A stretch of 64,000 nucleotides of DNA from Octopus vulgaris (Eukaryota). This document shows, one piece after another, positions 5,581-60,810 of the stretch (within the stretch, counting starts at the first letter, position 1; every line of letters starts with the position of its first letter). The notes under the pieces were generated by a model. The model was not told the DNA's origin, ran no database searches, and saw only the letters and a program-made list of their open reading frames with translations. The stretch is from contig OX597823.1 of NCBI GenBank assembly GCA_951406725.2, forward strand, positions 102,548,001 through 102,612,000, read 5' to 3'. The translations under genes and the position numbers were made by a program.

Positions 5581-6517
5581 TATGTAAATATATTGAAGAA
5601 GGCCTGAAGTAGTGATGAAGGCGAAATAAAAGATACAAAGAAAAAAGAGATTTAAAAGTCAGGATAGTTGAAAATTGTTAAAATAGGGAACCAACGGCCG
5701 TTGCTAGAGGTTAATTGCTGGTAAAAATAAGAGGACATAGCACTCACTATTTAGCAATTCCCCCTTCTTCAGGTTTTACATTGGCAAGTTGACAATGACA
5801 AGTACTAGAGGGTTAGGTTTTTTTTTTATAGACAAGAGGCATGGGTGGGGGAAGAAAGAGAATGAAATATATCCCAATAAAATATTCATGACAATGAATA
5901 AAAGTTTGTCTTAAAATGGATCTTAGTTCAATTCTAATCAGGGTCACTAAAGTGTAAAAACGTTGTGTAACTTTAATGTTTCCATGAAAAAAACCCACAT
6001 CTGACAATTTGTTAAGTAGTGATAGATTATGCATTTGAATAATAATGAGTACTTCCCTTTAACATAATTTACACTTACCTAAGTTAGCGTTATATGAGGG
6101 AGCTTTGGATTCAATGGACCATTTTAGTGTATTCTTTCTGTTTTCTGATTTGAGCTTGTGGTTATACTTAGCAAGCATGGTAGCCATTTTATATTTAGGA
6201 TTTTTAAAGAATTGATATGAGTTCAATATCTACACTTAAAATCTATGGTACTACTGATGTATATTTTACGTTGTGCATCTGGTGTGGATACCTGGCATTT
6301 ATAAATAACATATCGCACACGATATCCTGCAAGAGGATAGGAATCATTCACCCAACAATTGCATCTTTTTCTTCTTTTTTGCTGTTTCATTTTTAATTGA
6401 GGTAAATTTGGAGCCAGGATATTAGTTTGTTGGCTGATAATGTTATTTAAATTATGAGTATCAGTTTCAGATTGGGCAGTCATACTGGAGCTAAAAGTTG
6501 CATGTGTTTTATTTATA

Positions 6518-6563
<46 letters not shown>

Positions 6564-6564
<1 letters not shown>

Positions 6565-6900
6565 TAGCACTATGACCCGGCGTTGCCAGGTCATAATGCT
6601 AGTGCATACATATACAGCTGCGTGTGTGCGCACATACACGCAAGTACTGTCCAAATCTCTGACCAATCACATACAGCTAGCTGGCATTTTGATTGGGTTT
6701 TGGATAGAAAATTCACAGACAAGTCACTTCTATTGATTTTTTAATGGCTTTGCGGGGTGACTGGGGAAATGTAAAGATGTGCACGACCACCCTTGGACGG
6801 TTTTGAATGACCATAAAATGTGTGAGCCCTCTAACTGAAAAATTGTGGATTTGTATAAAGGACACACACACAGACAGACATTTTGCCTTTTATATATATA
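6564..6900 (-). mobile_element. Non-autonomous Helitron-like element
   Basis: Minus strand ends in the GC-rich hairpin GACCTGGC-AAC-GCCGGGTC followed by ATAGTG-CTAG|T. Its 5' part has TATATATAAAAGGCAAAATGTCTGTCTGTGTG; inserted in (TA)n. Confidence 0.7.
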
Positions 6901-7110: not shown

Positions 7111-8689
7111 TGTCAAAGTATAAATAAAGTACCACTAAAACTAATAACTGTCAGTATATAACACACAAAATCTTAATAAGGACTAGATAATAGCATTGGT
7201 CCATATAGTTTCATTGATTTGCATATTAAAATTAGTGAAGACTAATGTTGCTTATTTAATAATTCAGCTGTTACAGCTGATCAAATGCTTCATTAAAAAT
7301 CATCCCACCTGTACCAGTTTTAAAGAAAAAAAGAATAAATAAATGGATATCAACAGCAAACTGAAAAGTAGTTTAGAATCTCCAGAATGTTTACCATAAC
7401 CTTTTTCTGTGACAAGTTGGTGTGGTTTAGAACTTGGTGCTAACACTTCAAAAAGTAATCTTGGGATTGGCAGAGAATGAAAATACATTTTGTGATTTTG
7501 TTAGTGTATTGGGTCTTTTTTTTTTTTTTTGCCCATTAGATTCTTTGAAAGATTTTTCAATCTGGTTTGATTGGTTGGTTAACCACCAAGTTATTAGTAA
7601 ATGGAGTCCATGATCTATTTTTCATGTCCAGTTCAAAGAACCTCATTAACTGCATGAACTAATGACTTTTGGTGTCACATCAACATCGCTATTTTCCCTT
7701 TCATCTCCACAAATCGAAAATTCTTGTCTTGCCAATAATTATGTGTGTGTGTGTGTGTGTAAACTTTGTATTATACAATAATTTTACCATTTTCCCATTG
7801 TACATGAATTTTCATTATATTTTTATTTTTTTAATGTTGTGTTATATTCTATATATTACTTACAAAACCCTCTGTAATAAAACTGAGCATTTTCCTAATT
7901 TTTATGGTATAATGTGTGTTGTTGTTTAAATCCAGGTCAGTCTTGATTGAGCAGATTGACAATCAAAAGTGTTCCAGCTTTGAGCCTCCCATCTTTTTGT
8001 ATATTTTTGACTACATTGTCTAATGTAATTCTAGATGGTAGAATATCTTATGTAAGGAAATTTAGTTGTTATTTCTAGCAGATCTAATCAATTATATATA
8101 AACTGCATGCATGTTAGATGTGGTGCCAGTTTGTTTATTGTAATGGGGTTATCCAGAAACTGTCCTGTTATTATTTGGGGTTAAAACAATGAGCTAGCTA
8201 AGTAACCCAGTTCATTAAGTTGCTCCTTATCAACCCTTGGCCTGCAAGAAATAGCAACCCTATTTTTCTCAAATCACATAGTCTAAAAAAAAAGAAGGAA
8301 GAAGACATTGACTAGTGTAGACCTACATAGACTACCATACTGTAATAAAAGATGAGATGGTTACAGTTTGAATGCTTTCATCATAGGTCAAATCAGTCAG
8401 GGCAACTAAGTCCTGAACAATAACTGCCTATTTTATGCATTGACACAAGAGGTCACCTTCATAGGAATGAAACCACAATACCATAAATTCTAACCTTGCT
8501 CCTAACTAGCAGCCAATCTACTTTTGATTTACTTTCTGCTTCAACTCAACTATCTTATGCTAGTTAATTGAGTTTCACTAGTAAAAATAGAATTTATCAT
8601 GTTTTTTGTTTTAATAGATTTTATAAGAATGTTTTCACAAATAAATGACAAGTTTCACTGAATGTTTTCTTACTTTCTCTTTGATGTAG

Positions 8690-8823
8690 GGCCACGATGG
8701 GCTTCCTGGAATCTAGGCATATTTTTATGTATCCGCTGTGCGGGTATTCATCGCAACCTTGGTGTACATATATCCAAGGTGAAGTCAGTAAACTTAGATA
8801 CTTGGACTGCAGAACAACTAGCT
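8690..8823 (+). CDS. SMAP1: SMAP1/2-like ArfGAP, internal coding exon (zinc-finger half of the ArfGAP domain)
   Basis: Translates to [45 protein letters not shown] (ArfGAP CxxC..R motif). TAG acceptor at 8687-8689, GTGAGT donor at 8824; 134 nt. The first coding exon is not seen in the window. SMAP1 versus SMAP2 is not resolvable. Confidence 0.95.
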
Positions 8824-11440: not shown

Positions 11441-12560
11441 CCCTTTCGTTACCAAACCGCCCAAAGCCGCCTGAAAAAAATTTTGGTTAATGTGACCAAA
11501 CCGACCAAACCCGCCCGAATTTACCTATTCATATTTAAATGAGAATATCAGAGCAAATCTCTTTAGTACATTTCTTTAGTACATTCGTGAAAACACGTGA
11601 TTATGCTTCGTAAACAGTTCATCTACAGTTTTGTACAAAGATCGACGTGTAATTTTAATTCCCTGAATTTTGGGAGATTTTTTTCCACATTTTTTTCGGC
11701 ATCGATTTTTCTTCAACTTTGAAAATAGATAGGAGTTTCATGTTATCAAGCATTGATTCCAAATTGGAAAATTTGTGAAACAAATACTGGGTACTGTTGT
11801 GGATTTAGTTTTTATACAGGGAAACTAATGTTAGTCAGCATGGCTTAGGGTATGATGTGGTCTGGAAGTTATTGTTTGAAGCGATCAATGCGGAAACAAA
11901 CTTACGCAGAATGTAAACAAACACAAAATGGGGGTTCAAATTTCGGAAAATTTGTGAAGCAAATACTGGGTACTGCGTGGATTTAGTTTTTATACAGGGA
12001 AAATAATGTTAGTCAGCATGGCCTAGGGAACGATGTGGTCTGGAATTTATCACTTCCATACCATAACCAGGGCCGTATATTATTTTTTGACCGATTTCTT
12101 TAGTTCGGTCAAACTTACGGTGGATTCCAATATTTCATTTTATTCCACCTTTATGGTACACCTGTTGTGCAGTAAATTCAACTGATGATATAGTGATGTG
12201 CACAATTCTTCTTTATCAAAATTTTGTTGCATACCCATTTGAATATTAGCTGATGATTCATTTTCTATGGTGATGTTTAAACAAAATTTTAATATTTTTA
12301 CCTTTTGCTCATTTAAAAATTTTAATATTTTTACCTTTTGCTCGATTTACCTGTAATTAAAGTCACTTTGAGACAAAAGTTATGCAATAGAATTGATTAA
12401 GAACCCTTTCTTTAATTATGTTCCAAATATCACATTAATATGTTGATAAGTAAAAAAGTTACAGTTATTTAATGAAATAAGCCTAGATTCATGATTATTT
12501 TAGAATTTAATTGAAACTCATGAGGGATGTATTTTGGTCAGAAATATAGTGACAAAAGGG
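11441..12560. mobile_element. Non-autonomous piggyBac-like DNA transposon
   Basis: TTAA at 11437-11440 and 12561-12564; termini CCCTTTCGTTAC and GTGACAAAAGGG; internal ~105-bp direct duplication (~11766-11870 and ~11945-12048); interrupts a decayed family B SINE. Confidence 0.8.
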
Positions 12561-14203
12561 TTAATGGGATATTAAAGGCAGAATATAAAGAGTCACAGTG
12601 AACTACAAAACATTTTGTTTAGTGCTCTAGTGGATTGGTTCGTGCCAATCCACCACCTTAGCAATATTACTAATAACAATAATAAAACTCCCATTTGAAA
12701 ATATAGTTGCCACTGCTAGTATAAGCATGAACCTGGATGGGAAACTTCTGTTAGATAATAATATACTGTCAGCTGACTAGAAGTTAGGTATTGCTAAGAT
12801 AGAACCCCCTCCCAAGGAAGACATGCCACCTCACTAGAAATAACTAGTGAGGTCAAATCTGAAATGTTGGGCCTTGGAAATGAGCTAATATATGAGTGAG
12901 ACACAGTCTTTTTTTTTTTTTTAACAGTCATATTTCAATGCTATCTTGAGTAAGTAAAGTATGCAGGTACTGTCTAGAGTCCTAGGACACATAGGACTGG
13001 CATATAAAGGATAAGATCACAACATTCTTCCAAGACAGGACACTAGTCCATCACAAGCTTTTACTCATTTACAGCTGGAGCAATGTGAAATAAAGTGTTT
13101 TGCTCAAGAGCACAATGCACTGCCTGGTCTTGCGACCAACATCATAGCCACTATGCCATGTACCTTCACCATCTTGGTTAAGGCAAGGGTTTAATTGGAG
13201 AAGGATCCTTAAGGTTCTTCCTGTTGCCAAGTCATGCTTTCTCTTCTAGCAAGGGATATGTTTTTCCAGAAGCTTTTGAAAGTGCAGAGTGACTGGTCAT
13301 AATATTGACCAAGAATGTATATGTTCCTACAACTTCATTCAAATGGTGTCAAGTATAGAATATCCACATGTGTACCTATTTGCGCAATCACACATACATA
13401 CACACAGTTTCAGGATGAGTTTTACATCTGGATGCCTTTCCTATCATCAACTGCTTTAAATAGTCTTACAAGCTGCAGGGTGCTTTTTTTTTTGTGGCAC
13501 CAGCACTGCAGAGGTTGTCTAATACTCAGCAAGACTAAATAATCCTGTCACCCTTACTTTCTCACTACTTGATTTTCCAACCTCTTGTATGTATAAAACA
13601 CATACACATATATATATGATTGTGCCTATTTACAAATCCCTATCTTTAACTGATGCTCCCTAATTCCTTCCATTTGGGTAAGTAAAACAGCTTCTCTAAC
13701 TAAAGTTTCACTCTAATTTGATCTGTGTCAATTAATGCACGTATCTTGTGAAATAATATGCAGTCCAATAAAGTGTAGTGAAGGCAGCCCATCTTGGAAT
13801 AAATTCAATGAAATAAAAGTAATATTTCATTGTGGACAGCATTACTAGTTTAGGCTGGGGTACAGCTCTTTGTTCCAAAATAGAGTGCTCTGAGTTTGGA
13901 AAGACACGATGAACATCTTCATCTATTTTGACTGTGGTTACTAACAGAAGGATACTCTAAAAAGCCATCAGCTGCATAAAAAATAAATTTACATAGGATA
14001 ATAGGATTGTGAATACATGGAAAGGCCTTGTATTTCATCCCTGTGTAACACATACTAACAAGGAGAAACTAATGCAAAACTGAGGATGCTTATGGAGTTA
14101 GGATGATCATCTTACACTTGTATAAGTAATTATACAAGTGTATACAACTGTCAATCCAAAAAGTAAGTAAAATCTTCCAAATTAAGTAAAATACCTAAAG
14201 AAT

Positions 14204-14254
<51 letters not shown>

Positions 14255-14420
14255 TAGTTATCGCCATACTAATATGGTAGTCTATAAATATAAGACTAAA
14301 GCTGTCACTGATTAGCTCCAAGAGGCCATCGCCTCTAGCTAGCTATTCGACACACGAACCTGCGTCCATTACAAACCTTCGAACAGGGAGGTCAGCCGCT
14401 TCACCTTGCTAGTCAGACAT

Positions 14421-14461
14421 CTGCAGACATGTTTCAGGGTTGTTGCCCTTTATCAATGCAG
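14421..14461 (-). ncRNA. Minimal type I hammerhead ribozyme, U3:A8 core variant
   Basis: CTGCA-TTGATAA-AGGG(CAACAA)CCCT-GAAA-CATG-TC-TGCAG: 5-bp stem I, 4-bp stem II, palindromic ACATGT stem III, GUC cleavage triplet. Confidence 0.75.
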
Positions 14462-14800
14462 CGTAGTCAGACCCGCAGGTGTCGCTACTGACCGTCTGTT
14501 CGAAGATTTTATTTACCTAGTTACAGTGTTCAAAGGTTTGTAATGGACGCAGGTTATTGTGTCAAATAGCTAGCTAGAGGCGATGGCCTCTTGGAGCTAA
14601 TCAGCGACAGCTTTAGTCTTATATTTATAGACTACCATATTAGTATGGCGATAACTATTAATATCCAGTAACGCTGCCGTAAGAGACTTAGTAATTTTAA
14701 TATTTCTATTATTGAAAACAAGTGGATGTATTCCACTGTAACTAGGTAAATAAAATCTTTGAATAGACGGTCAGTAGCGACACCTGCGGGTCTGACTACG

Positions 14801-14841
14801 CTGCATTGATAAAGAGCAACAACCCTGAAACATGTCTGCAG
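14801..14841 (+). ncRNA. Minimal type I hammerhead ribozyme, U3:A8 core variant (second copy)
   Basis: CTGCA-TTGATAA-AGAG(CAACAA)CCCT-GAAA-CATG-TC-TGCAG; one stem II mismatch; predicted cleavage after C14836. Confidence 0.7.
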
Positions 14842-15068
14842 ATGTCTGACTAGCAAGGTGAAGCGGCTGACCTCCCCTGTTCGAAGGTTTGTAATGGACA
14901 CAGGTTCATGTGTCAAATAGCTAGCTAGAGGCGATGGCCTCTTGGAGCTAATCAGCGACAGCTTTAATCTTGTATTTATAGACTACCATATTAGTATGGC
15001 GATAACTATTAATATCCAGTAACGCTGCCGTAATCTCCTTTAGAGAGACTTAGTAATTTTAATACTTC

Positions 15069-15107
<39 letters not shown>

Positions 15108-15345
15108 GAGGGAATATTATTCCTAACTTACAGGGAAAAATTCAATTTAGAAATACGAAATCAAATTTCACAAAATATAATATATGTATAAAAATTAGAA
15201 AAAACCACCTTTTATCAATTCAAAATGAACAAAGAAATTACACCATCTAGAATATTACATATAATAGAAATATTAAATATAAAATAACAATAATATATCA
15301 ATGATTAAGCAAATTGCAAAATAATAAATAAAACGTATATATTTA

Positions 15346-15395
<50 letters not shown>

Positions 15396-17277
15396 GCTGG
15401 ACGTCCTGCAGTTTCTGTGTTCCAAATTACTCAAGGCATTTGATTGGTCCAATGCTTAATCTAGATGCTAAGCACTAAGACCTATCCCAAAATTATGTTG
15501 ATGTAGAGTGAACTTCTGTGCCACATATCTATGTCTATGTGTGAAAAATAGAAAAAGAAAATTTTCAAGGGGGAAAAACTCCCACATCATTTTTGTAGCT
15601 TACTGGTGAACCAGAACAACTTGTTTTACATCCAAATGCTTTTGGAAATAAATAGAATAAATTCTCATATATTATTATACATGCCTCCTTTACTCAGAAG
15701 TCAATGACAACAAGATTTCCAGGCTAAGTATTTTCACTTACTAGCTACACATAACTGCTGCTATGAGGTATTAAATAGCTTAATCTATAAATCTTCTTAA
15801 TTAAGTTATTAACACCTATAATTACTTGCTTGATTTCTTATTCTTGTTTTTTTGTTTTATATTTCTTGAAATGTCTAAAAAGAAAACTATTAATTGAAAT
15901 ATTTAGAAATAATAATGCAATTTAAGAATAGAATAAGTATTTATATGGAGAGCTTACTGCTAAAATTGCTATTCTATTGGCTAATTCCTTGCTGATTATC
16001 ACAGATGTAGTAAGTACCAAACAGTGAATTACAGGTAGTTGAGTGCATTGACTTAGCTCTGTGGCATTAAACTGTACAACACTAATGAATGATGATAATT
16101 GCCAAATGATAGTGATGTCTGTGTGTCTAGAGTCAATGAGTTCAACTTACTTCTTATAGACATTATGCTAATTGTGTTAGCCAAAGAAATGTTTGTGTGT
16201 CTTGGCGTCTGTCTTTTTATGGGCCTGAGAAAATTTTTTGTTTATTTTGTTTTTGTCATGAAAGTAATGACAGTGCCCATAAACTTCTGCAGGCCTTCTC
16301 ATACTGATCAGGTTTGAGGGATTGATGTCCAGCTTGATCTTTTGCAAGTTTATGTCTTGAATGGAAAACAGGAAGATAGAGAAAATTTCAGAGAGTTGCA
16401 GGTCTGTAAAGGAAAGAATAGAGCAAGTGCTCAGTGCAGGTTTAGTGAGCAACACCATAGAGTTGAGTATACAGCTGATTTGTTCAGTCATGCAGGAAAT
16501 ATTGTATTTGCAGAAGAAACAGGGAGCAGTATTAATGGCAAAACCAGGGTGGTGAGTGATAGTTTATTAAACATACAGTATCGTATTGTCTTCCTTGAGA
16601 TTTAGTCTACAACATATTATTCACTGCACCTTTTCATTGCCAACTCCGACACCTACGGTTGGCCTCCCAAATTGGATACTACAAAAACTGAGCAAAATTA
16701 ATGTTTGTACTCAGAAACTATTCAACAGCAACCAAATGAAAAAAAATTAAATTTTCCTTGCAAGGAAGTTGTCATGGCCCTGACCCTTTTGATCAAGGCC
16801 ATCCTTGTTCTGTGATATAAGCTTTCTACTTTAGAGTGATCTGCATTAAAACTTTCCCTCAAAATTTTGTCAATTTACGTTCTGAACACCAAAGGGGTTT
16901 TACTAAATTCTTCATTATTCTCAGAATTAACTGAAACAAGGGCCAACAGAAATATGATAGCAAAAAGGTGTTCAGTCAATATTAACATTACATGAGGCTC
17001 AGATTGTAATACTGAAGTAACATCTCCAGCAGCAGAAAAAGTGTCAACAACTGTCTGAATCAAGTTTGCAATCATGAAAAATTAATTTTAAGATAGCTAA
17101 TGAACTTGTGGAAAGTTATAAAATAAAAGCTGACATTGATCTCTCCAAAGAACATTGGAAAACTGTATTTAAGGCAACAGAATATTCCAAAAATAGTTTG
17201 ATGAGAAGGTTGCACATAGCTACTTGAAATGAAAAAACAAACCACAGAGGAAATAAACTACAGTGAGAGCCTGGCAT

Positions 17278-17700
17278 AGGTTATTTTCATAGTCAAGGAG
17301 CAATAAGTCCTCACCAAGTATCTTCTAGCAACACCACAAGTGTAGGTTATGCCAAACTAATATTGAAGACATTATGTATATGTCACTGCCAACTGTAAGA
17401 GAACATCTTTGAGACACTACCTTCTGAGGAGGTGTGATGTAGTAGCCAGAGCAATCTGGAATAGAGTGGGACATGAGTAACAACCAATAATGGTAGACAT
17501 ATTGAGACCAGTAGATCAAACAAATATTTGGTGGAATTTCCAGAATAAAAATAGCAATCAAACTGAAATGCAACCAGCTTGATATTGTTGTTAAGGACCA
17601 CAAAAAGAAAATCATACTTTGTTGTGAAGTCAGCTGATTACTTTTGGCAAGAAAAATAGAGGTGCCCAAAATAGACTTTCAGGTTTAGACACATCATTAT
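17278..17700 (+). mobile_element. Highly decayed RLE-type (R4/NeSL-like) non-LTR retrotransposon relic
   Basis: Broken frames give KCRLCQTNIEDI (zinc-knuckle start), DVVARAIWN, IWWNF and KLKCNQLDIVVKDHKKKIILCCEVS, resembling the NRPDIVV...IIDV restriction-like endonuclease motif. Confidence 0.55.
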
Positions 17701-20700
17701 TGGAATGACAAGATATGTACCAAGCCATCGGAATCAACATGTGGTTGAGTTTGGATTGTTGGTGAAGGACAAAAACTCCATAATTCATAGGCTATTGATG
17801 ATCATAATATCTAGGTTGAAATAAATCAGCAAGACTTTGCTAAGCGTTAACTGGTGCAGAAAAGATGTTAACAAAAATCTAAAGATCACCAAAGTTTTGA
17901 AGCAGAGAATAGGATTGGCGAAATAACTTGCAGATTCTTACTGTATCCATAGTTCAGTTTAAAACGATGAAGGTCAGTTGTTATGCAGAGTTGACATTCC
18001 AGAGGGTGCATTCTTGGGTAAAGTGTTCAATGTGAATTTTAGTTAATGAAATACTGTAGAAGTAGGTGACACACGGATGGATTTACATTGAGGTGATACT
18101 TTACATTCAACAAGTTTAGAAGAGTAGAAACCAATGTTGTAACTATAGAAAAGACAGACAGGATGCAAGAGACAGTGTAGTAGTTGTTGAATATTGATGT
18201 GGTAAGATTGTGTGTCAGGTATTGGGGTTGGGGCAAAGAGAGTATGCAGTTCAAAATCAGGATCATGTGTGATAGGGTGCTGTCTCAGATGTATACACAA
18301 TCGCTTGCACTTGAATACACATATAACGTGTTGCGGGTGTATGTGTCTATTCATTATGTGGAGATAGCATGGTCAAATGGTTAAGAAGTTCACTGTGAGG
18401 ATGTTTGGGGAAACACCTTTTACCAAAGCCTTATATCGTGTGAGTGAAATTGGGGAGACAGAAATTATGCAGAAGTCCTTTGCCTGGAATGTACTTTGTC
18501 ACACCCTGTATCACACTGATTCCAGTTGACGTCAAGGATATTATATATGTGGAATACTCAGCCACAATGCAAATTCAGTGAGTGTTGTCATAGATGTAAT
18601 AACTAGAAGGTAGAAAGCAGAAAGATAGTTCGAGGAGGAAATATTCATCCTTCCCCATTTCTTAGTATATTTGTATACTTTAAAAAGAGATCATGAACTG
18701 TCTGTATGTGAAACCCTTAAACAAGAGCACAGTGTTTACGTACCTTAATTATATCGTTAATTGTTTTAACTCACTATCATAGTTTTTGTGTTTATTTATC
18801 ACGGCATGATAAAATTGTTCAATTATGGAAGAGATAATCTTTTAATTTACTTTGCTCTTTATTCATTTATTTGTATATTTAATAATCTTTTACTTGAGAT
18901 AAGAACAAATTGTCATTAGGATATTTTACATTTCATATCTAAAGAAACATTGAGTATATAATTACATAGCAAATAATGTTTGCTTAACATTATCAAATCA
19001 ATATATTTCACAGTTGTATTTGTTTGTTTCAACCTGAAAATATGAAATTGTTTGACAAAACTTACGCTTTATTAGTGATTTGTTAATTTAATACCCTAGC
19101 TTTATTTATGTATTTATTTATTTATATATTTACTTATTTATTCACTTGACTACATGAATGGTTTCTTTTTACTATGAAATGTTGACCGCTGGCCAGCAAC
19201 CCAAGCAAGTTATCTTTTAAATAAAATTAAAGATCAAACTTATATTGTTTGTGATGTACTGGTGTACCACATAGCTAGCTGAACTACTGCACGTATACAA
19301 TGAGATATGTCACTGTATCACCACAAATCAATAACTGTTTCAACTTGGTGTGATTCACACACTGTTTAGTACAGGAAACTATGTATGTAGGGGATATATA
19401 GATGAAATTAGGCCAATTCTTGAGTTTGTGTAGGAAAGCACGAAAATTTACCAGAAATACATTGAAGATTAATACAAACAACAATATGCTGGATATTGTC
19501 GTATCATCTAGTAAAAAGAAAGACTCAGATTAACAACCCACCAATTAATTTTTACTAACAGTACTTCTGTCTATGTGTATGTGGAGAGAGAGTGAGAGAG
19601 CAATTATCGGTGGTGTAACAATTATCTTTTACTAGTATATTTAAGCCATCAAAAGTGATGGTATTTTAAAAGACATCAGTTAAAAATGATATATAATAAA
19701 TGCATTCATTATATTTTATATAGTATAATTTTATTATTTATGAATTCCTATTGAGGTAAAACAATAAAAACTTTTATATTTAAATGTTGATATATTTTTT
19801 CATACATATAATGAAAGTTTTTGTTTTTTTTTTATATTCATGACTTATACCAAGGAATGCAAAAAATGTTTGCTGTGTCTACTGCCCACCATTTATTTAC
19901 TTTGATGCTTGTGTGAATAGTATCACCTACAAAATCCCTTGAAAATTTACAAAGAAGGCCTCCTAAAAGAGTCAAACAGAGAGAGCCAATATAGTCCTTT
20001 ATGTTAATTCTACCACTGAAACATGTAATAAAAAGATTATGTAAATATTGATAGTGAGGCAGAAAAGAAATATATATATAATCTAGAAGGTACACTTGCA
20101 CCTTTCTTTCTGTTGTATTTTTGCCAATAATGCTGACAAAGTGAGCTACCTGCTTTTATCAAGCAATTAGGCCTTTCAACTCATATAATTACTGGCAGCT
20201 GGCTTTCTGAAGCACATATACATTATATAAAGCATTAATACAAATTATATTTTCTGCGTTCTTTATATAACTTTCTGCATGGGACAAACAAATAAATTAA
20301 AAAGTTGGAAAACTATTAGGGCATGAGATATTTCCATTTACTTCTGGTGTTTCAGTATTTATTATGTGTATGTATGCAAGTATATATGTGCGTGTCTGAA
20401 TATGTGTTGGTGTGTGAGATTCTCTACTTTCACAATCTCTTTCTTTTCCCTCCCATCATTTGCCTCTCTTTCTTTCTCCCTCCCCCTTTTTTTTTCATGC
20501 CTTCTCCTGTCAATCTTCACTCCACCTTACCTAGCACACTTACACCTTTCACTCAGCTCATCCTCTTTGAAGATGACTCTTTTTTTCTGTCTCCTTTTTC
20601 CTACTGCTATGCTTTAGTAAGGGAGAAAAGATATATATATATACATATATGAATAAAAAATGGAGTTAACGCAGGTGTAAACAAATATTTTTACTTTCAA

Positions 20701-20830
20701 CACATGTTTCGAAAATTCCACTGATACTATTCAAAAGAATAAATGGTATAAACAATGCAATCTTCTCTTCGGGTAAGTGAAAAAAACGAAACTCATCAAT
20801 ACGACATTTTAGCAAAAAAGTAATTACGCT

Positions 20831-21544
20831 ATGAATACTAGTAAAAATATTTGGTTAATAATTCCTTACGGGAGACAAATTAAATCTAATCTCCCACTGC
20901 TGTTTCGTCAAGCTATTGCTAGGAATTTTCCAAACAATTCTAGATATTATTCTATAATTAATTCACATAAGGTTAGGATAGGTTTTTCAAACACAAAAAA
21001 TCTCTTGCAAATTATATCTTCTCATAATAGCAAACTGTTAAATATTAATACATTTACTAATACTAACATTAATTTAGCTAATACCATCCAACCCTCTAGA
21101 AATATTAATAACAAGGTTATTGTATCTGAAGGCAATTCCAGTAGAATTAAATTTATGTCAAGTAACTCTAAGATTAAAAATTCTATATACCAGTGTATAA
21201 TCACTACTCGTAATAAAGTACGATTTTACATTGGAAGCACATCGTTAGAGTTATCTAAAAGAATTTCTATCCTTCACTCAACATTTAGGGATAGAAATAA
21301 ACGGAATAGTACCGGTCTCAGCAAACTGATTTGGGATTTAAAAGACCACAATGAACAATTTCATTTAGAATGGTTGATCCTCTCAATTTCGATACCATAT
21401 GACAAAGGCAAGAAATTCTGTCTTCTCTGCAATTCTGAGCTATTTTTCATTATTTTTTCTAAAAATACTCTAGTAAACACGGTTATAGAGCGAGCATACA
21501 GATGTAAGCATTGGCAAAAACATACAATTAGTGCATATAAGTAG
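20831..21544 (+). CDS. PLE linker plus GIY-YIG endonuclease fragment (no RT)
   Basis: SIYQC...FYIGST...KRI...H...STGLSKLIWDLK...CLLCNSE...N...RCKH; stop-free for 237 codons. Confidence 0.8.
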   Translation: MNTSKNIWLIIPYGRQIKSNLPLLFRQAIARNFPNNSRYYSIINSHKVRIGFSNTKNLLQIISSHNSKLLNINTFTNTNINLANTIQPSRNINNKVIVSEGNSSRIKFMSSNSKIKNSIYQCIITTRNKVRFYIGSTSLELSKRISILHSTFRDRNKRNSTGLSKLIWDLKDHNEQFHLEWLILSISIPYDKGKKFCLLCNSELFFIIFSKNTLVNTVIERAYRCKHWQKHTISAYK

Positions 21545-26243: not shown

Positions 26244-27428
26244 CGAGGGACGTTCAATAAGTAATGCCTCTGACCCACTTGAAATTTTGCATGTGCAATC
26301 ATTTATATCTCTATAGAGTAAGTGGCAAATTACAGCTCTGAATTAATTGTGGTTTCTGATTTACAGGTGTTTGAACCGAGTCAAGTGTGAAATGGAGCCT
26401 GTTGAGTGTCGAGCAGTGATCCGGTTTTTGTATTTGAAAGGACGCACACCACTGGAGACTTTTGATGAAATGAAAGTAACTTATGGTGATGATGCCCCAT
26501 CATATGACCTTGTAAAACGCTGGCATCGTGAATTCAAACATGGTCGGAACTCTGTGGAAACAGCTCCCAGATCTGGTCGCCCCCTTCTGTCATTGATGAG
26601 GCATCTGTCTGTCAAGTTGAGGCTGCCATTTTGGAAGATCGACGCATAATTATTTGCCAAATAGCCCATGAGGTCAAGATTAGTACTGGGTCTGTGGAAA
26701 CTATCATTCATGACCATTTGCATATGCAAAAGGTGTCTGCCAGATGGATTCCCAGGTTGCTCACGCCTTTCCAGAAGCAAGAACGCGTCGAGTGCTCGAG
26801 GGTGAATTTGGAGATGTGCCAAGAAGATGAGTCAAAATTTTTCAAAAGACTGATTACACAGGATGAAACCTGGGTCCATCACGATGATCCAGAGACCAAA
26901 GCCCAGTCAATGCAGTGGAAGCACCGTGACTCACCCCCTCCAAAGAAGGCAAGGGTGCAGCCCTCCGCTGGCAAGGTCATGCTCACAGTCTTCTGGGACC
27001 AGGACGGAGTAGTGATGACAGATTTCCTGGCAAAGGGTACCATCCTCCTCCTGCAGGACAACGCTCCGGTCCACAACTCGCTTGTCGCCAGATCAGAAGC
27101 ACAGGCATATGGTTATGAACTCCTCCCCATCCCCCCTACTTTCCTGACCTTGCACCCTCTGATTTTCACCTCTTCCCAATCATGAAGTTGTTTTTGAAAG
27201 GAAAGCGTTTCCCAGATGATGCAGCCTTGATTTCTGAAGTCACGTTGAGGTTGGAGGACAAAGCTGGGTTCTTCTACAAAAACGGTCTCCAGAGCCGCAT
27301 CAAACGATGGAAGAAATGCGTAACTCTGGGTGGTTCCTATGTAGAAAAAGACTAATAACTGTGCCAAGTTTCGTTGCTCTACTGCTATGGGAAGTGGGTC
27401 AGGGGCATTACTTATTGAACGCCCCTCG
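26244..27428 (+). mobile_element. Mariner (Tc1/mariner) transposon, defective
   Basis: 37-bp TIRs CGAGGGACGTTCAATAAGTAATGCCTCTGACCCACTT (2 mismatches between ends) with TA on both sides. Confidence 0.95.
26392..27355 (+). pseudogene. Mariner transposase pseudogene (frameshifts and internal deletion)
   Basis: MEPVECRAVIRFL...RSGRP; WIPRLL; ITQDETW; QDNAPVH; PYFPDLAPSDFHLF across frames; a segment is missing between KGT and ILLLQDNA. Confidence 0.92.
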
Positions 27429-50109: not shown

Positions 50110-51762
50110 GGGAAAGTTTACGAAAATAAACAAAAGACAAAGGCAGGTGGAGTACAAACAAACAAATATATTAGTAGAGCACTCAGGAATAGAAAGATAC
50201 ACAGAAAAAAACAAGGAGAGAAAAAAAATGTGTGTAGGAGCTAACAATCTATCATGGCGTCCTGACTTCGGACAATGGTCAAACGCGAGAGGGATAGTAG
50301 GGGAGATAACAGGGTCAAGTGACTTCCAATACGAAGGTGCCCCCAACACAAAGGTGCGTGTGATCTGGACGTGTGTGTGTGGGTGGTGTGTTGTGATGTG
50401 ATGTGTAATGTTGTATGGTGTGGTGTTGTGGGGAGGTGGGGGAGGCGAGAGTGGGGAAAGCACAGGTGGGGTGTGGGTAGATAGAGGGTGGGGAAGGGGT
50501 GGGAAGGTGGAGTAGGGGTGAAAAGATGTAGGAGTGAAGAGAAGTAGGAGGAGGGGAGGAGGTTAGATGAAAAGAGGGGAGAGTTGAGCCCAAATGGCGT
50601 AAAAGAGCGAAGAGAGAAGATTAATCCCTGTTCACAGCGCAAGCGGGAATCCGGATGGCCTCTGTCCAAGGACAATCCGAACACAGACAGGTGTTGCAAG
50701 GAGTGACCGGGGGAGCAGAAATGGCGTGAGACTGGAGTGTCATTGGCGAGGCGGATGTCTTGGAGGTGTTCTGTGAACCGGTCAGTCAAGCGGCGTCCCG
50801 TTTGTCCGATGTACAGGGAATGGCAGAGAGAGCAGGAGATGCAATAGATGATATTGCTGGAGGTGCAGGTGAAGGAGTTGATGATGCAATAGGGTCGATG
50901 ATGGGTGCCAGTGAGGAGGGTGGTGTTGGAGAGGTAAGGGCAAGTGCAGCAGGGGAATGAGCCAGGTTGGGAGGTAGGGTTGGGGAAGAAGCTGTGGACC
51001 AAGATGTCTCGTAGGTTATGGGCTCATTTGAAGGAGAGGAGAGGTTGGTTAGGGAAGAGGTGTGAAGTGGAGAGGTCAGACTGGAGATGCCGGAAAGCTC
51101 GAAGAATGGTGTGTTGGAGAGGTACAGTGGTGGGGTGGTAAGTGAGGGGAAAAGGGAGGCGGGAGACTGCAGGGCAGGTTCGAGGAAGAGAGCAGATGCA
51201 CGGTCTACGGAACGTGCTCTGGCAAGGGCGGTGTGGATAGTGGTGAGGGGATATCCACGTAGGATGAAGTGGCAAGCCATGAGTTGAGACTGAGTCTCAA
51301 AGTCATGGTTGTCACTACAGAGCCTACATAGATGGAGGAATTGGGAATAGGGGATGGAAAGCTTGGTGTGTTTGGGGTGGGAGGAAGAGAAGTTTAGGTA
51401 TGAGTGTGAGTCTGTGTGTTTGTAGTGAATGGAGGTGGTAAGAGTGGAGTAATGAATGCTGACCAAAATATCAAGAAAGGAGACAGAGGTGTTGGAGATA
51501 GTGCAGGAGAAGTGGAGGGCAAGATGGAAGGATTTAACAAAAGAGAGGAAGGAGTCTAGATGTTCGCGGGAGAGTGAGGTGGCACTGATACAGACATCAA
51601 TATAACGACCGTATAGTTCAGGAGTGGGACCAGTGAAACTAGAGAATATTTGGGCCGCAACATAGCCAACGAACAGGTTTGCATAGTTGGGGCCCATTCT
51701 CGTTCCCACGGCCACTCCTGAGTTTTGTTGGTAGAACTCACCCACGAACGAGAGACAGCAAA
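50110..51762 (-). mobile_element. Penelope-like retroelement, 5'-truncated and frameshifted (RT C-half plus GIY-YIG)
   Basis: FYQQNSGVAVGTRMGPNYANLFV; GRYIDV (YIDD site mutated); VSFLDI; HYKHTDSHSYLNFSSSHP; then CTSSNIIYCISCSLCHSLYIGQTGRRLTDRFTEH. Confidence 0.92.
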
Positions 51763-51772
51763 GACTCAAGAT

Positions 51773-52018
51773 TTTCAGACAAATATTTAAGTGTGAATAT
51801 ATAGATATTTCTGTCAATAGATCGAATTACACAGAATACAAATAACAGAGATTTAAAGGGGAAGAGGTAAGGTGTTATAAGTCCCCTAGAAACAGCTGTT
51901 GGACTTATAACAGCTTACCTCTTCCCCTTTAATTCTCTTTGTCATTTATACTCTGTGTAAATTTGATCTAGTGATATAAATATCTATATGCTTATACTTA
52001 AATATTCATCATCTGAAA
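51773..52018. repeat. Imperfect ~110-bp-arm fold-back abutting the PLE 5' truncation
   Basis: ...TAAAGGGGAAGAGGTAAGGTGTTATAAGTCC-(CCTAGAAACAGCTGTT)-GGACTTATAACAGCTTACCTCTTCCCCTTTA... Confidence 0.8.
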
Positions 52019-52361
52019 GTCTTTGCTTTCTTTCTGTTTGCATGTATATATATATATTGGATATCAAACCCAAGCTGTTATATTTAATTTGTTTATCCAC
52101 ATAATTGCCCCCATATCTACTTGCTTTGAATCCTCTTATAGCCACTTTTTTACTCTGTGGAATTGGTCCTTCATAAAGACATCAGAGCCTAAGTTCGAAT
52201 CATTTGAGCATTACTGAGTGTTTTCTATACCGTGAATCCCTGGACCTCATCTGTTGACTATCTATATAATGTAGTCATTGATTATGACCAATCAGAATGT
52301 TAACATTAGTATCACGTCTATTTTTGTTCTTAGCAACACAGGTGACTTGTCAGTTCTGCTG

Positions 52362-53964
<1,603 letters not shown>

Positions 53965-56597
53965 CATACCTGACAACATTTTAATGATGGGAGATTTCAA
54001 CCTTCCCGGGGTTGACTGGTCTACAAACAGTCTGCCGCCAGGTTCTTCTCTCTCAACCCCTGACAGGGAGGCAGTGGAATCGCTTCTTGACTTCATGGAT
54101 GACTTCTTCTTGTCCCAACTGGTACTCGAACCAACGAGATGTCACAAAAACGTCTTAGACTTAATTTTCAGCAATCACACTGATACTATCCACAATATTG
54201 CAGTGGAGAAAACCCTACTCTCCGACCATGACATGGTTCTCTGTGATCTGAGATTTCACTGGCCAAAATGCAAAACAAATGTCATCCCTCCTGTTCATCC
54301 ATTTGACACTATGGATTTCCACAATGCAAACTGGGAAGCGATCAATAATGATCTTGCACAAGTCGATTGGTCCTTCGCGCACACATACACACCCACTAAC
54401 ATCAAAAAGTCCTGGCAGTCACTTGTAGACACCATCACGAACATATGTGCAAGACACACCCCATTAAGATCTGCAAACAAATCTAAGTGTCGAATCCCTA
54501 GAAATAGAAAATCTCTCATAAGGAAAATTAAAAGAATCAACAAAAAGATCAACATGCTGAAATACTGTCAACAGCAACACACCAACCTGACTGCCATCTC
54601 GTCGCTAGAGATTAAAAAACATAAACTCCAAAACAACATGATGTCTATCATCAATAGTCAGCGAAGAGCTGAAGAGGCCTGGGCCATTGAGAAGATCAAA
54701 CTCAATCCCAAAGTGTTCTTTTCATTTGCAAAAAAACACAGAGTCACTGGTTCTACTGTTGGCCCTCTGATTGATGAAAATGGTATTCTTCAAGACAATG
54801 CCAAAACCATGGGAGAAATATTGCAGAAACAATATTGCTCTGTTTTCAGCAATCCTGATATGACTGATCTGGGCTGTATCAGTGATGTTACTCCCCAATA
54901 CACTTTATCGGACATAACATTTGGCGCTCCTGATGTCTTAGCAGCAATAAAGGAAATGAAGCATAATTCAGCAGTAGGTCCCGATAGGTTCCCTGCTTGT
55001 GTCTTGAAGATGTGTCAAAACCAACTTGCACCCCCTCTAGCCAATCTGTGGCGGAACTCATTGGATGCTGGATATATACCAGAAGACCTTCTATCCCAGT
55101 CTGTTGTCCCAGTTTTCAAAAAAGGAAACAAATCGCTTGCCGTGAATTACCGTCCAATCTCACTCACCTCTCATATCATCAAGGTATTTGAGAGGGTGCT
55201 GAGATCGCGTATGACTCACTTCCTTGAGAGTCATAATATGCTGAACCCCAACCAGCATGGATTCCGTAATGGGAGAGATTGCCTGACGCAGCTACTGCAT
55301 CATTTTGATGACATTTTGAGAGCCTTGGGAGAGGGTTCCAACACTGATGTCATCTACCTTGATTTCAGCAAGGCCTTTGACAGGGTTGATCATAAGATCC
55401 TTCTGAGAAAGCTGTCCAATATTGGTGTCACTGGAAAGCTGCTGCAATGGATCAAGTGCTTCCTCTCTAACAGAACCCAACATGTTGTAGTCGAAGGAGT
55501 CAAATCCAGCCCAGCCAAAGTCAGCAGTGGTGTCCCACAAGGCACTGTGTTGGGCCCACTTCTCTTCATCATCTACATAAATGATATTACTGACACCATC
55601 AAACACAGCAACATCAGAACCTTCGCTGATGATTCCAAGCTCCAGAAGGTCATCAATGGCGTGGATGACCGAATAAACCTTCAGTCAGACCTACTAGCTG
55701 TTGTCCAATGGGCGGAAAAGAATAACATGTTGCTAAATGAAGACAAATTCGAACTGATCCACTTTGGAAGGGAGGACGCTCTGAAACTCCCATACTCTCT
55801 TCCTTCTGGAGAAATTCTCATGGCATCCAACAACATCAGAGACCTGGGAGTAACAGTGGACAACAACATAAGCTGGGCTACACATATAAGCAGCAAAGTT
55901 GACATGGCCCGCAGAATGTGTTCCTGGATTCTCAGAACCTTCCAGTCGAGAGATTCCCACGCTATTATCCTTCTCTTCTCCACTTTTGCCCGACCCCACC
56001 TTGAATACTGCTGTCCACTGTGGTCTCCCTACACAAAACAAAATATTATGAGAATTGAAGCTCCCCAAAGGTCAATCACAAAAAAGATAGATGGCATGTC
56101 AGACCTTGACTACTGGGGTAGACTAGAGAAGCTGAAATTGTATTCACTCCAACGACGCCGTGAACGCTACATTATCTGTATGATGTGGAAAATATTCCAT
56201 CAGCACTGTCCGAATGATGTTGGCATCACCTTCAAAATGCATCCAAGGCTTGGACCACGTGCCATCCGTCCACAACAAAAATCTAAATCGCATCACATAA
56301 CGACAATACGGCACAACTATTTCACCTCAATTGGACCCGCTCTCTTCAACATTACACCAGGACACGTCAAAAAAGAAACTGACCACACAAAATTCAAGAA
56401 GTCTTTGGACAAATTCCTTCAAACAGTACCGGACAAACCATCCACACCCGGATATGTCTCCGCAAACAATAACTCTCTGCTCGAATGGGCCTTGGTGCCC
56501 AAATCCTGAACTGAAAGACTTCGCCAGGTGGTGCTATTAAGTTAGACATGGCCTGGGCCAATACTGGCCAAAAACCTTTCTAAGTTATTCTAAGTTA
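53965..56597 (+). mobile_element. CR1-like LINE, 5'-truncated, ORF2 uninterrupted to the stop at 56509
   Basis: APE C-terminus (MGDFNLP, LDLIF, SDH); RT ([38 protein letters not shown]); [11 protein letters not shown]; short 3' UTR ending (TTCTAAGTTA)x2. Confidence 0.93.
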
Positions 56598-56725
56598 TAT
56601 ATATGTATATTTATGTATATATATATGTATATTTATGTATATATATATATGTATATTTATATATATATATGTATATTTATATATATATATGTGTGTGTTT
56701 ATATTTATATATATATATATGTATG

Positions 56726-56797
<72 letters not shown>

Positions 56798-56832
56798 ATT
56801 TATATATATATATATGTATATTTATATATATA

Positions 56833-56872
<40 letters not shown>

Positions 56873-57023
56873 GTATATTTATATATATATATATGTATAT
56901 TTATATATATATATATGTATATTTATATATATATGTATATTTATATATATATATATATATATATGTATATGTATATGTATATTTATATGTATATGTATAT
57001 TTATATATTTATTTGTATATGTA

Positions 57024-57058
<35 letters not shown>

Positions 57059-57063
<5 letters not shown>

Positions 57064-57969
57064 AGAGAGACGATTGCGCTGGTATGGTCATGTGGCGAGA
57101 ATGGATGAAGATAGGTGTGTGAGAAAGTGCCAATCCCTAGCAGTTGAGGGAACCCATGGAAGAGGTAGACCCAGGAAAACCTGGGACGAGGTGGTGAAGC
57201 ACGACCTTCGGACGTTAGGTCTCATCATGGAAATGACTAGAGACCGAGACCTATGGAAGTATGCTGTGCGTGAGAAGACCCGGCAAGACTAGTGGAGCCA
57301 TATCCCGTGGCCCCTACCTGGGACGTGGTCAGTCCACCTGTGCATACCTTCCTTATTGTGACACTTGAGAAGACCTGTTGAGGCAAGTGAAAATCAAAAT
57401 CAAAACCAAATCAAAATAGATGTACATCAATGGAATTTGTATCCTATTTGTATCCTTTTATGGTACCAGTGCCGGTGGCACATAAGAAAACCATCTGAAC
57501 GTGACCGTAGCCAGTACCGCATCGACTGGCCTCCGTGCTGAGGGCACGTAACAAATACCATCCGAGCGTGGCCGTTCACCAGCCTCGTCTGGCACCTGTG
57601 CCGGTGACACATAAGAAAACACCATCCGAGCGTGGCCGTCTGCCAGCCTCATCTGGCACCTGTGTCGGTGGCACATAAAAAACACCATCCGAGCGTGGCT
57701 GTCTGCCAGCCTCGTCTGGCACCTGTATCGGTGGCACATAAAAAACACCATCCGAGCGTGGCCGTCTGCCAGCCTCATCTGGCATCTGTGTTGGTGGCAC
57801 ATAAAATCACCCTCTACACTCTCGGAGTGGTTGGCGTTAGGAAGGGCATCCAGCTGTAGAAACACTGCCAGATCTGACTGGCCTGGTGCAGCCTTCGGGC
57901 TTGCCAGACCCCAGTTGAACCATCCAACCCATGCTAGCATGGAAAGCAGACGTTAAACGATGATGATGA

Positions 57970-57970
<1 letters not shown>
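57059..57970 (+). mobile_element. RTE-clade LINE 3' end with long 3' UTR
   Basis: [14 protein letters not shown]...[17 protein letters not shown]...RDRDLWK* (stop at 57292); the UTR has four ~63-bp tandem units and a (GAT)n tail. Confidence 0.88.
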
Positions 57971-58020
<50 letters not shown>

Positions 58021-58021
58021 G

Positions 58022-60165
58022 TAGCCATATGCTACAAATGTGTCCCAGAGAGAAAGGCCACTGTACACAAGAACAAAATACCCAGAGAGAGGAAAATTTT
58101 AATGAGACGGCGTACAAAAATTTGAAATCGCCTAAACAAACAAATTGAAAGCAGTGAAAAGTCCCGCCTGAAAATAAAACTGTTGGAAATTGAAAATTGT
58201 CTGCAACTCTCCCATGAGAAGGAAAGAGCAGACAAAGAAGCCTGGGCTATAGACAACATAAAAACTAACCCCAGAGCTTTCTACAGGTATGCCAAAGAAA
58301 CAGCTACGGTGCACTGTAGGGCCACTCCTTGAAAAGGATGGCACACTCACAGGAAAACCAATGAGGGTAAGTGAAATACTGAATGAACAATTCAAGAGTG
58401 TTTTCGCTCCACCCCTTGGGCATTTCCAAATCAGCAATCCAACTGACTTCTTTACCACTGCAGATATAGAATCAGAGGCGGCGACGATAAATTACATTGA
58501 TATAAAGGAAGACGATGTAATAAAGGCTATAGATGAAATGAAAACAGACTCAGCTATTGGCCCCGATGGATTCCCGGCAATCCTCCTAAAAGTATGTAAG
58601 AGAGTCCTAGCAAGACCACTGCAGTTCCTCTTTCAGAGCTTCCTTGCAGCTGGCAAACTTCCAAGAAAACTGAAGGAAGGTAAAATATGCCCTATTCATA
58701 AAGGAGGTAGCAGAGCGGAGGCCAAGAACTACAGACCTATCTCTCTGACCTCACACATCAGCAAGGTCATTGAAGAAAATGACTTGCTGCCTGACACCCA
58801 ACATGGTTTCCAACCAGGAAGAAGCTGCTTAACTCAGCTCCTGCAGCACTATGACTGGGTGCTGAAACAACTGCTCAACCACTCAAATGTGGAAGTCATG
58901 TATCTCGACTTCGCAAAGGCCTTCGATAAAGTCGATCATGGAATGATATGTCACAAACTGCGTGATCTTGGCATAGTTGGAAAACTAGGAGAATGGCTTC
59001 ATGACTTTCTGAAGAATAGAAGTCAGGTGGTAGCAGCCAATGGGGCTACTTCCATTAGCACGCAAATAGTGAGCGGTGTTCCACAGGGCACTGTTTTAGG
59101 ACCACTACTGTTCATAATGGCCCTCTCAGACATGCCCTCAGCCACGCAGAGAGCCACGATCACAAGTTATGCAGATGATACAAAAGTTTCACAGGCAATA
59201 CAGAACCCTGAAGACACTAAGCACCTGCAATGTGAGCTGGACGAAATATACAAGTGGGCTGAAAAGAATAGCATGCAGTTCAATGCTGAAAAGTTTCAAG
59301 CTTTATACTATCAGCATGCAAAACTGAATGAAATACCCAATGAATACACTGGACCCGGAGGGATTGCAATCCCAGAGGCACAATCAGTGCGTGACCTGGG
59401 TATTCACATGAGTGATGACGCGACCTTTCATGTACATGTTGCTAAACTGACAATGAAATGTAGACGGCTGGCTGGATGGATTCTTAGAACCTTTAGAACA
59501 AGAGAACAAGAAACCATGATGGTCCTCTGGAAGACACTTGTCCTAAGCCACTTTGACTATTGCTCTCAGCTATGGTCACCATCCAGTGTCAAGTTGATCA
59601 CAGAACTTGAAGCGATCCAACGAAGCTACACGAAGAAGATAGCCTCTGTGCAGCATATGAGCTACTGGGAGAGACTCAAGAGATTAAAGCTCTATTCCCT
59701 GGAGTGTAGGCGAGAAAGATATGCCATAATATATATCTGGAAGATCCTGGAAGGTCTTGTCCCAGACTTTGGCATCGAGAGTCACAAAAATGCCAGAACC
59801 GGACGCCACTGCGTAGTACCAAGGACTCCAAATTTGCCATCAAGATGTAGGACAAGATATTGTGATAGCCTGGGCTTCAGAGGCCCACGGCTCTTTAATA
59901 TCCTCCCGAAGAACCTGAGAGACCTGCATGGTGTAGATGCGGATGTCTTTAAAGTAGGACTGGATCTCTTCCTGTCAGGTGTCCCGGATGAACCAACTTC
60001 ACGGCAGGAGGGGCAGATGAGGGCAGCTGCATCGAACTCTCTCATGCATCAGATGGCGTTTGCTAAAAAGTATCCGTGAGGTAAAACCGTGTAGCAAACC
60101 AAATGGCGGTGCCCCAGCATGGCCACAGCTCATTAGCTGAAACTGGAAAAACAAAATCAAAATCA
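58022..60165 (+). mobile_element. Second CR1-like LINE family, 5'-truncated, defective RT ORF (58289-60079)
   Basis: [46 protein letters not shown]. Frameshift near 58290 and a short deletion after HISKVI relative to the neighbouring LINE. Confidence 0.92.
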
Positions 60166-60169
60166 TATG

Positions 60170-60206
<37 letters not shown>

Positions 60207-60212
60207 GTATAC

Positions 60213-60487
<275 letters not shown>

Positions 60488-60498
60488 GTATATATGTA

Positions 60499-60603
<105 letters not shown>

Positions 60604-60724
60604 GTATGTATATATATATGTATATATATATATATATATGTATATGTATGTATATATATATGTATATATATATATATATATATGTGTATATATATATGTA
60701 TATATATATATATATGTGTATATA

Positions 60725-60789
<65 letters not shown>

Positions 60790-60810
60790 ATATATATATA
60801 TATATATATA

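Follow-up and report, generated by a model that had tools for sequence, protein, structure and literature searches.

A 362-bp hammerhead-bearing repeat family of Octopus vulgaris that probably depends on a Penelope-like reverse transcriptase for its copying

What kind of repeat carries two hammerhead ribozymes with a U3:A8 pair in the core, is that core kept by selection, and how does the repeat move? The question was raised by an insertion at 14248-15074 of a 64,000-nt stretch of Octopus vulgaris DNA (assembly GCA_951406725.2, contig OX597823.1, positions 102,548,001 to 102,612,000), which is called the window here and to which all coordinates refer. An initial annotation of the window had described a repeat of about 350 bp, present as one inverted and about 1.5 tandem copies; that layout stands, and the unit length is corrected to 362 bp. 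The insertion consists of an inverted arm, half a unit and one full unit, with (TA)n target tracts on the left (14206-14251) and right (15072-15103). The inverted arm (14248-14528, minus strand) spans u22-303 of the unit, is 96% identical to the full unit and has its 3' end at the inner (u303) priming site. It is followed on the plus strand by a 5'-truncated direct unit (14527-14712; u166-362 with an 11-bp gap), which lacks the hammerhead, and then by the full non-coding unit, u1-362 (14713-15074). The 362-bp unit folds with a z-score of -5.7. A long hairpin is predicted at 14753-14888 (+), where u41-54 pairs with u163-176 and the hammerhead lies at the tip. Two further hairpins at 14895-14948 (+) covary and are conserved across related families, which makes them a candidate protein-binding structure. 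In the 2.8 Gb of genome searched (227 contigs), the repeat family was found to be dispersed, with hundreds of copies.

Both window hammerheads, at 14421-14461 (-) and 14801-14841 (+), read CUGCA-UUGAUAA-stem II-GAAA-CAUG-UC-UGCAG, exactly as had been claimed for them. They are minimal type I hammerheads with a 3:8 pair, U4, G5, A6 and A9, then G12, A13, A14 and A15.1, and U16.1 and H17. The minus-strand copy has the U3:A8 pair and an intact stem II, and its predicted cut falls at 14426/14425. In the plus-strand copy, U3 is 14806, A8 is 14811, the palindromic stem III ACAUGU occupies 14830-14835 and the cut is predicted at 14836/14837. This copy carries a G>A change at 14815 that breaks stem II, a variant shared by 3/40 and 3/34 family copies, and thus the two hammerheads of the window are unequal in intactness. 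An Rfam scan of 12000-18000 gave no hammerhead match. In folding predictions, the palindromic stem III pairs between the two strands of a cofold, and the minimum-energy fold of the monomer mispairs the hammerhead core. The hammerhead of the 362-bp family is likely a self-cutting RNA. The initial annotation had also taken the agreement of the two window copies as evidence for selection. Both copies, however, come from one insertion event, and their agreement is not independent evidence.

Whether U3:A8 is a family state was judged from the genomic copies. An exact 34-nt pattern that accepts both letters at position 3 and both at position 8 had 179 genomic matches and 0 control matches, so the motif is not a chance one; a looser pattern had 724 against 31 in the control and also caught other families. 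Among the 100 matches listed of the 179, 98 were U3:A8, one was U3·G8, one was C3·A8 and none was C3:G8. Three sets of loci gave U3:A8 in 40/40, 33/34 and 22/23 copies. The 40-copy set was selected through a motif at a distance of 180 nt, without regard to the core, so that U3:A8 is the family consensus and not a private mutation. A sister subfamily, 81% identical to the window family, is younger: it has 1,385 motif matches, its copies are 98-100% alike, and the U3:A8 pair is present in 22/23 of them. Its stem III has changed from ACAUGU to ACGCGU with the palindrome preserved. Sister arrays reach up to 5 units in the fetched loci (L148-L177; G000:C1:162.62 Mb), and the match list of the subfamily shows a longer series of matches spaced by 362 bp. 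More distant related retrozymes are about 64% alike.

Covariation was examined in a MAFFT alignment of 20 units, two from the window and 18 chosen as family representatives. RNAalifold recovered stems I and II unprompted, together with the two downstream hairpins. The named structure had 93.9% of its cells paired compared to 26-49% in slid controls, a comparison to be read with the caveat that related sequences can beat shuffle controls without any structure. Two-sided changes were seen in 17 of 27 pairs. The 3:8 pair was C-G in 11 units, U-A in seven and U-G in two, and was unpaired in none, while G5, A6, A9, G12, A13, A14 and A15.1 were invariant in 20/20. Stem III was self-complementary along its whole length in 12/20 units and over at least 75% of it in 18/20. 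A tree built without the core columns required U3:A8 to have arisen at least twice, and U3·G8 units sit next to one of these origins. The earlier proposal that compensation at 3:8 reflects selection is thus supported on other grounds than those first given: the stems show covariation and all 20 related units retain a 3:8 pair, which points to selection on the ribozyme.

The core swap itself is not new. "U3-A8 instead of C3-G8" was described in about 1,300 hammerheads of Schistosoma Penelope-like elements (PLEs), with a descriptor built for them (Cervera and de la Pena, PMC4209133), and part of another report gives the swap as present in nature and active in vitro (Perreault et al., PMC3088659). 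Being a published variant, the flagged swap adds little. As far as that part of the literature goes, the octopus hammerheads share the minimal type I fold, the palindromic stem III and the U3-A8 pair with metazoan PLE hammerheads, including those of Schistosoma mansoni Cercyon, which likewise occur as opposite-strand pairs 100-700 bp apart (PMC4209133). They differ from these in a stem II of 3-4 bp, a stem I of 5-6 bp and the surrounding 362-bp unit, which is non-coding and has no known parent with an ORF. Related retrozyme families also contain U4C cores (CCGAUGA and CCGACGA; L212, L217, L265, L270) and C3·A8 at two junctions. The U4C change is reported to lower hammerhead activity in vitro. 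Together, these young related retrozymes with C3:G8, U3·G8, U3:A8 and U4C cores form a natural panel on whether cleavage by minimal hammerheads is required. A separate small hammerhead-like family, C(U/C)GA(C/U)GA-AGAGCUCCGCUC-GAAACGUU, was seen in the flanks of L013, L060 and L104 and is unrelated to the unit.

Mobilisation was examined through the ends of the insertions. In 104 de-duplicated insertions, a set biased to copies that contain the core, 137/167 3'-type ends fell at u303 or u362, and 123/167 ran into (TA)n. The inverted insertions of this core-biased set paired u303 with u362 in 43 cases and did otherwise in two. Two further sets, of 64 and 21 insertions, were chosen by 3' motifs. 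In these, u303 was paired with u362 in 37/37 classifiable inverted insertions (23 + 14) and like was never paired with like (p ~1e-11); 10 more inverted insertions had one end elsewhere. The window copy obeys the same rule. Its u303 (15015) and u362 (15074) bound a 59-nt tail of PLE type at 15016-15074 (+). A tail at one insertion end has been described for PLEs (PMC8557442), and part of a study of an anole PLE places its tail between two internal reverse transcriptase (RT) start sites (PMC11167929). The family thus has a one-end tail, partial tandems, inverted 5'-truncated copies and a microsatellite target, which is the insertion signature of PLEs. It also has the non-coding unit (362 bp, in a class of 170-400 nt), type I hammerhead and tandem arrays of non-LTR retrozymes. 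From this anatomy, we consider it quite probable that the 362-bp family is a non-autonomous retrozyme of PLE (non-LTR) type, copied in trans by a Penelope-like RT, and that the window copy is one intronic insertion of it.

A different possibility would be a SINE-like repeat moved by a LINE that targets microsatellites, or else a minisatellite that has spread through DNA recombination, the ribozyme being a decayed one. LINEs can also show (TA)n targets and 5' truncation. Neither a SINE nor a minisatellite would be expected to have two fixed 3' ends separated by 59 nt, a strict pairing of u303 with u362, copies longer than one unit and compensatory changes; this reading is largely refuted already and we give it almost no weight.

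In the available text on animal non-LTR retrozymes, mussel repeats of 350-390 bp (PMC7229834) and axolotl Rtz_331/353 (bioRxiv 2026.07.22.740005) are alike in unit size, tandem arrays, type I hammerhead, lack of an ORF and proposed PLE mobilisation. In contrast to them, the octopus family has a non-canonical core and is known from genome sequence rather than from circular RNA, and its u303/u362 pairing is direct genomic support for PLE-type priming. The anole PLE Poseidon PAc, as partly described in PMC11167929, shares the AT-rich target, the internal RT start sites that bound the tail and the usability of uncut RNA as template. PAc is autonomous and its tail is 30-40 nt, compared to 59 nt here; its start sites showed no strand difference in vitro, whereas one site per end was used in every classifiable octopus inversion. 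With this strict pairing, the way in which PLE inversions arise can be read cleanly from genomic sequence, and a direct prediction follows for the in vitro PLE system. The 362-bp family is most probably a PLE-type non-LTR retrozyme of a known kind, and its interest lies in the end pairing and in the L1/Tx1-like targeting described below.

A partner enzyme was looked for in the genome. Two protein searches both gave one very active family with RT and GIY-YIG domains (6 + 30 loci), and no autonomous PLE with a pLTR homologous to the unit was found there. Apart from the TTAT-(AT)n 3' junction, this family showed no homology to the unit, and its own hammerhead is of the U3·G8 type. A 13-nt reverse-complement match between the unit and this PLE (E=0.58) was judged to be chance. 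Seven loci with divergent hammerhead-like matches had neither unit nor PLE protein matches. A widely spaced hammerhead pair at L061 was considered as two pLTRs and is in fact the unit with Tx1-like inserts. Since no ORF with RT and GIY-YIG lies in the unit or is joined to it, the family was not classed as an autonomous PLE. The copies might still be solo pseudo-LTRs of an autonomous PLE that the searches missed: the partner searches scored the best 40-150 candidates, and Xenopus retrozymes are homologous to PLE pLTRs according to part of a recent preprint (bioRxiv 2026.07.22.740005). We regard this as very unlikely, as copies that reach upstream of u1 always continue into u362 of another unit, none of the screened loci had an RT or GIY-YIG frame joined to a unit, and the sole ORF found in units belongs to the Tx1-like insert.

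The active PLE family has frames of more than 1,000 codons elsewhere, and its pLTR, which terminates in (TA)n, contains the hammerhead-like motif with U3·G8. A broken copy of it lies in the window at 50244-51826 (-), and the family is also present at L142-L147. GIY-YIG-like fragments of other PLE types were recognised by eye at 20813-21541 (+) and 6226-6666 (-); the first had no Pfam GIY-YIG match.

Mobilisation of the retrozyme by a PLE could proceed as follows. The unit would be transcribed from an internal snRNA-type promoter, with a PSE-like motif and a start near u61-65. Two hammerheads would dimerise by way of their palindromic stem III and cleave after u124, perhaps with the aid of protein. 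Unit-length RNA would be freed from arrays in this way and may be circularised by a host ligase. The PLE RT-endonuclease would nick both (TA)n strands and prime at u362 on one and at u303 on the other, and such opposite-strand priming would yield the inverted-plus-tandem layout of the window copy. Reading of the RT past the cleavage site would imply a circle or an uncut multimer as template.

The state of the template can be judged from the cDNA arms. These crossed the cleavage site in 43/101 and 16/37 cases, and the longest arm was 5 units. Stops of the 5' end at the cleavage site numbered 3/101 and 1/37. A linear cut template was considered, and the 5' pile-up expected of it at the cleavage site was not seen. 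The crossing arms and the lack of a pile-up therefore suggest that the template is circular or uncut. The 5' stops clustered instead at u160-172, in 14/101 (several from one complex locus) and 8/37 cases. This stop zone is the foot of the predicted long hairpin that carries the ribozyme, and the partial unit of the window (14527-14712) begins inside it, at u166. A circle joined at 14836/14837 is identical in sequence to the genomic tandem, so junction reads alone are not proof of circles. No run containing the unit was labelled as RNA. Contigs from runs that we guessed to be RNA cover the unit; they carry no level, strand or circle information and were excluded from the evidence.

These arms also bear on whether cleavage matters. 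Another possible explanation is that the family is moved by a PLE but retains the hammerhead fold as a module for binding or folding, with cleavage rare or dispensable. The readthrough of the cut site without a stop pile-up would agree with this, as would the U4C and some C3·A8 cores tolerated in related families. In the accessible part of the PAc study, hammerhead mutants did not block insertion in vitro (PMC11167929). Two further results count against the cycle set out above: published minimal hammerheads cleave weakly (PMC4209133, in part), and 8/9 Xenopus retrozyme dimers were without cleavage in vitro in the part of the preprint available (bioRxiv 2026.07.22.740005). Against a mere binding or folding module stand the invariant core residues in all 20 units and the compensatory changes that kept both the 3:8 pair and the stem III palindrome. 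Since that is the pattern expected of catalysis by dimers, we think a fold with rare or dispensable cleavage unlikely.

The position of the window copy in a host gene was considered next. An exon encoding ArfGAP (SMAP-like; Pfam ArfGap E=2e-21) lies at 8689-8820 (+), and the next exon was found at about 26090 (+) with a weak match (E=0.09). The insertion therefore lies in an intron with one hammerhead on its sense strand, as the initial annotation had it. The host gene is presumably SMAP, a name given from motifs. The plus-strand hammerhead could in principle act on this gene by cutting the intron of the ArfGAP/SMAP pre-mRNA from its sense-strand position. We find this hardly credible: stem II is mismatched, no partner ribozyme is present on the same strand, and the prediction for the pre-mRNA has 40/41 nt of the plus-strand hammerhead base-paired to the inverted arm. 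The same three features suggest that the window copy is most likely inert. Two consecutive hammerhead-bearing units are the mark of an "active" retrozyme in part of the preprint cited above (bioRxiv 2026.07.22.740005). Such pairs were found at other loci of the family; at 14248-15074, the partial unit lacks a hammerhead and there is no tandem ribozyme pair. The window locus is thus unable to release unit-length RNA by double cleavage. Its arms at 14248-14528 and 14734-15015 would give about 280 bp of 96% paired intronic RNA, a possible substrate for A-to-I editing.

A second mobile element was found to insert ahead of the hammerhead. At two loci, a 1.7-kb insert with a 445-aa CCHC ORF lies inside the unit and is flanked by a 14-17-bp duplication of u59-75; the empty target in the window is 14771-14787 (+). 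This ORF1-only element (L092 at G000:C1:121.03 Mb, L061, L178-L281) has at least 150 matches, forms head-to-tail arrays of its own that also lie ahead of its autonomous relatives (L208, L222), and has relatives with APE, RT and zinc finger. The ORF1-like protein had no usable match in Pfam, the Atlas or a homologue search. The element was labelled L1/Tx1-like from its CCHC ORF1, an ORF2 with APE, RT and zinc finger in its relatives, its duplications and its target preference. In the partial descriptions available, Keno (U2), Tx1 and Tx1-Mar share with it the APE-RT-zinc finger, the CCHC ORF1, duplications of 10-21 bp, repeat or U2 targets and tandem re-insertion (PMC4494074; PMC4640811).

The 3' end of the element followed by a hammerhead-like core had 73 matches against 0 in the control. 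With no hammerhead condition, there were 185 matches against 3, from a pattern that misses about a quarter of ends. Among 100 of the 185 listed and classified by eye, about 54 ran into a hammerhead (4 degenerate), 12 into a short retrozyme-like spacer with a further copy behind it, 4 into the spacer alone, 1 into U2 and 28 into other sequence; 1 was ambiguous. The fetched loci gave 38 junctions of different sequence, each situated 21-38 nt ahead of the hammerhead core; most junction loci had been picked by a pattern allowing 23-53 nt. These junctions span C3:G8, U3:A8, U3·G8 and U4C retrozyme families. In 9/20 element-hammerhead loci fetched for the purpose, a duplication of 10-17 nt was seen at 1.6-1.75 kb. 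Since the PLE route later multiplied some of the composites, the copies outnumber the insertion events. The use of an equivalent position in diverged retrozymes suggests that position, and not one sequence, sets the target.

Other landing sites were compared. An autonomous 5.5-kb APE-RT relative sits at the start of U2 snRNA genes (L379, L380, L381, L382, L372, L299). Its insertions duplicate about -7 to +14 around the start (5 junctions, with 1 more of the ORF1-only type), unlike Keno and Utopia, which cut U2 at nucleotide 38/39 according to part of PMC4640811. The 3' end of this relative was also found at a retrozyme site. None of 20 U1 loci carried an insertion at its start. The 20 "other" sites examined gave no support to a general targeting of start sites by the element: they were mostly short truncated copies outside any hammerhead unit and had no clear promoter context. 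The same landing position in diverged retrozymes, together with the U2 start, suggests promoter-guided targeting in an L1/Tx1-type element. A literature search, with Repbase, Dfam and supplements outside its scope, gave no report of the 362-bp family or of Tx1-like targeting of retrozymes or the U2 start.

In this genome, U1 and U2 genes have ATCAGT in common at 57-60 nt upstream (L384-L403, L378-L382), which is a candidate PSE. Similar motifs are found at the matching distance, about 57 nt upstream, in retrozyme units. A PSE matrix made from five U1/U2 promoters had its best score 53-59 nt upstream of the target in 11/12 retrozyme loci (chance 0.16 each), loci that are related and hence not independent; the 12th was shifted by a local duplication. 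In the window, the putative promoter element is 14716-14726 (+), which resembles the ATCAGTG of U1/U2 genes, and a TATA-like tract that may belong to it lies at 14747-14755 (+), about 26-30 nt before the start predicted near u61-65. The motif is absent from the inverted arm. The window family's PSE-like motif is weak (PWM 6.0, tied with u239) and is stronger in related families; its overlap with a conserved hairpin was counted against the promoter reading. A precedent, described in part of PMC2220036 (citing Coats et al. 1994), is newt satellite 2, whose hammerhead repeat contains a Pol II promoter of snRNA type; the octopus promoter differs in being proposed from a motif and an insertion hotspot.

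The insertion point of the element probably marks the retrozyme transcription start, and the second retrotransposon likely lands at a start site of the snRNA-gene type. A wider scheme can be put forward tentatively, at somewhat less than even chances. A retrozyme superfamily would run on PSE promoters, and the L1/Tx1-like element would home by position, use retrozymes and U2 genes as landing pads or borrowed promoters and then become Penelope cargo, a chain of three tiers of parasites. Within this scheme, homing on start sites would probably work through the snRNA transcription machinery.

Elsewhere in the window, we noted a fragment of a mariner-type transposase, pieces of LINEs and very long microsatellite tracts rich in (TA) (26532-27352, 55295-61363, 52275-57289).
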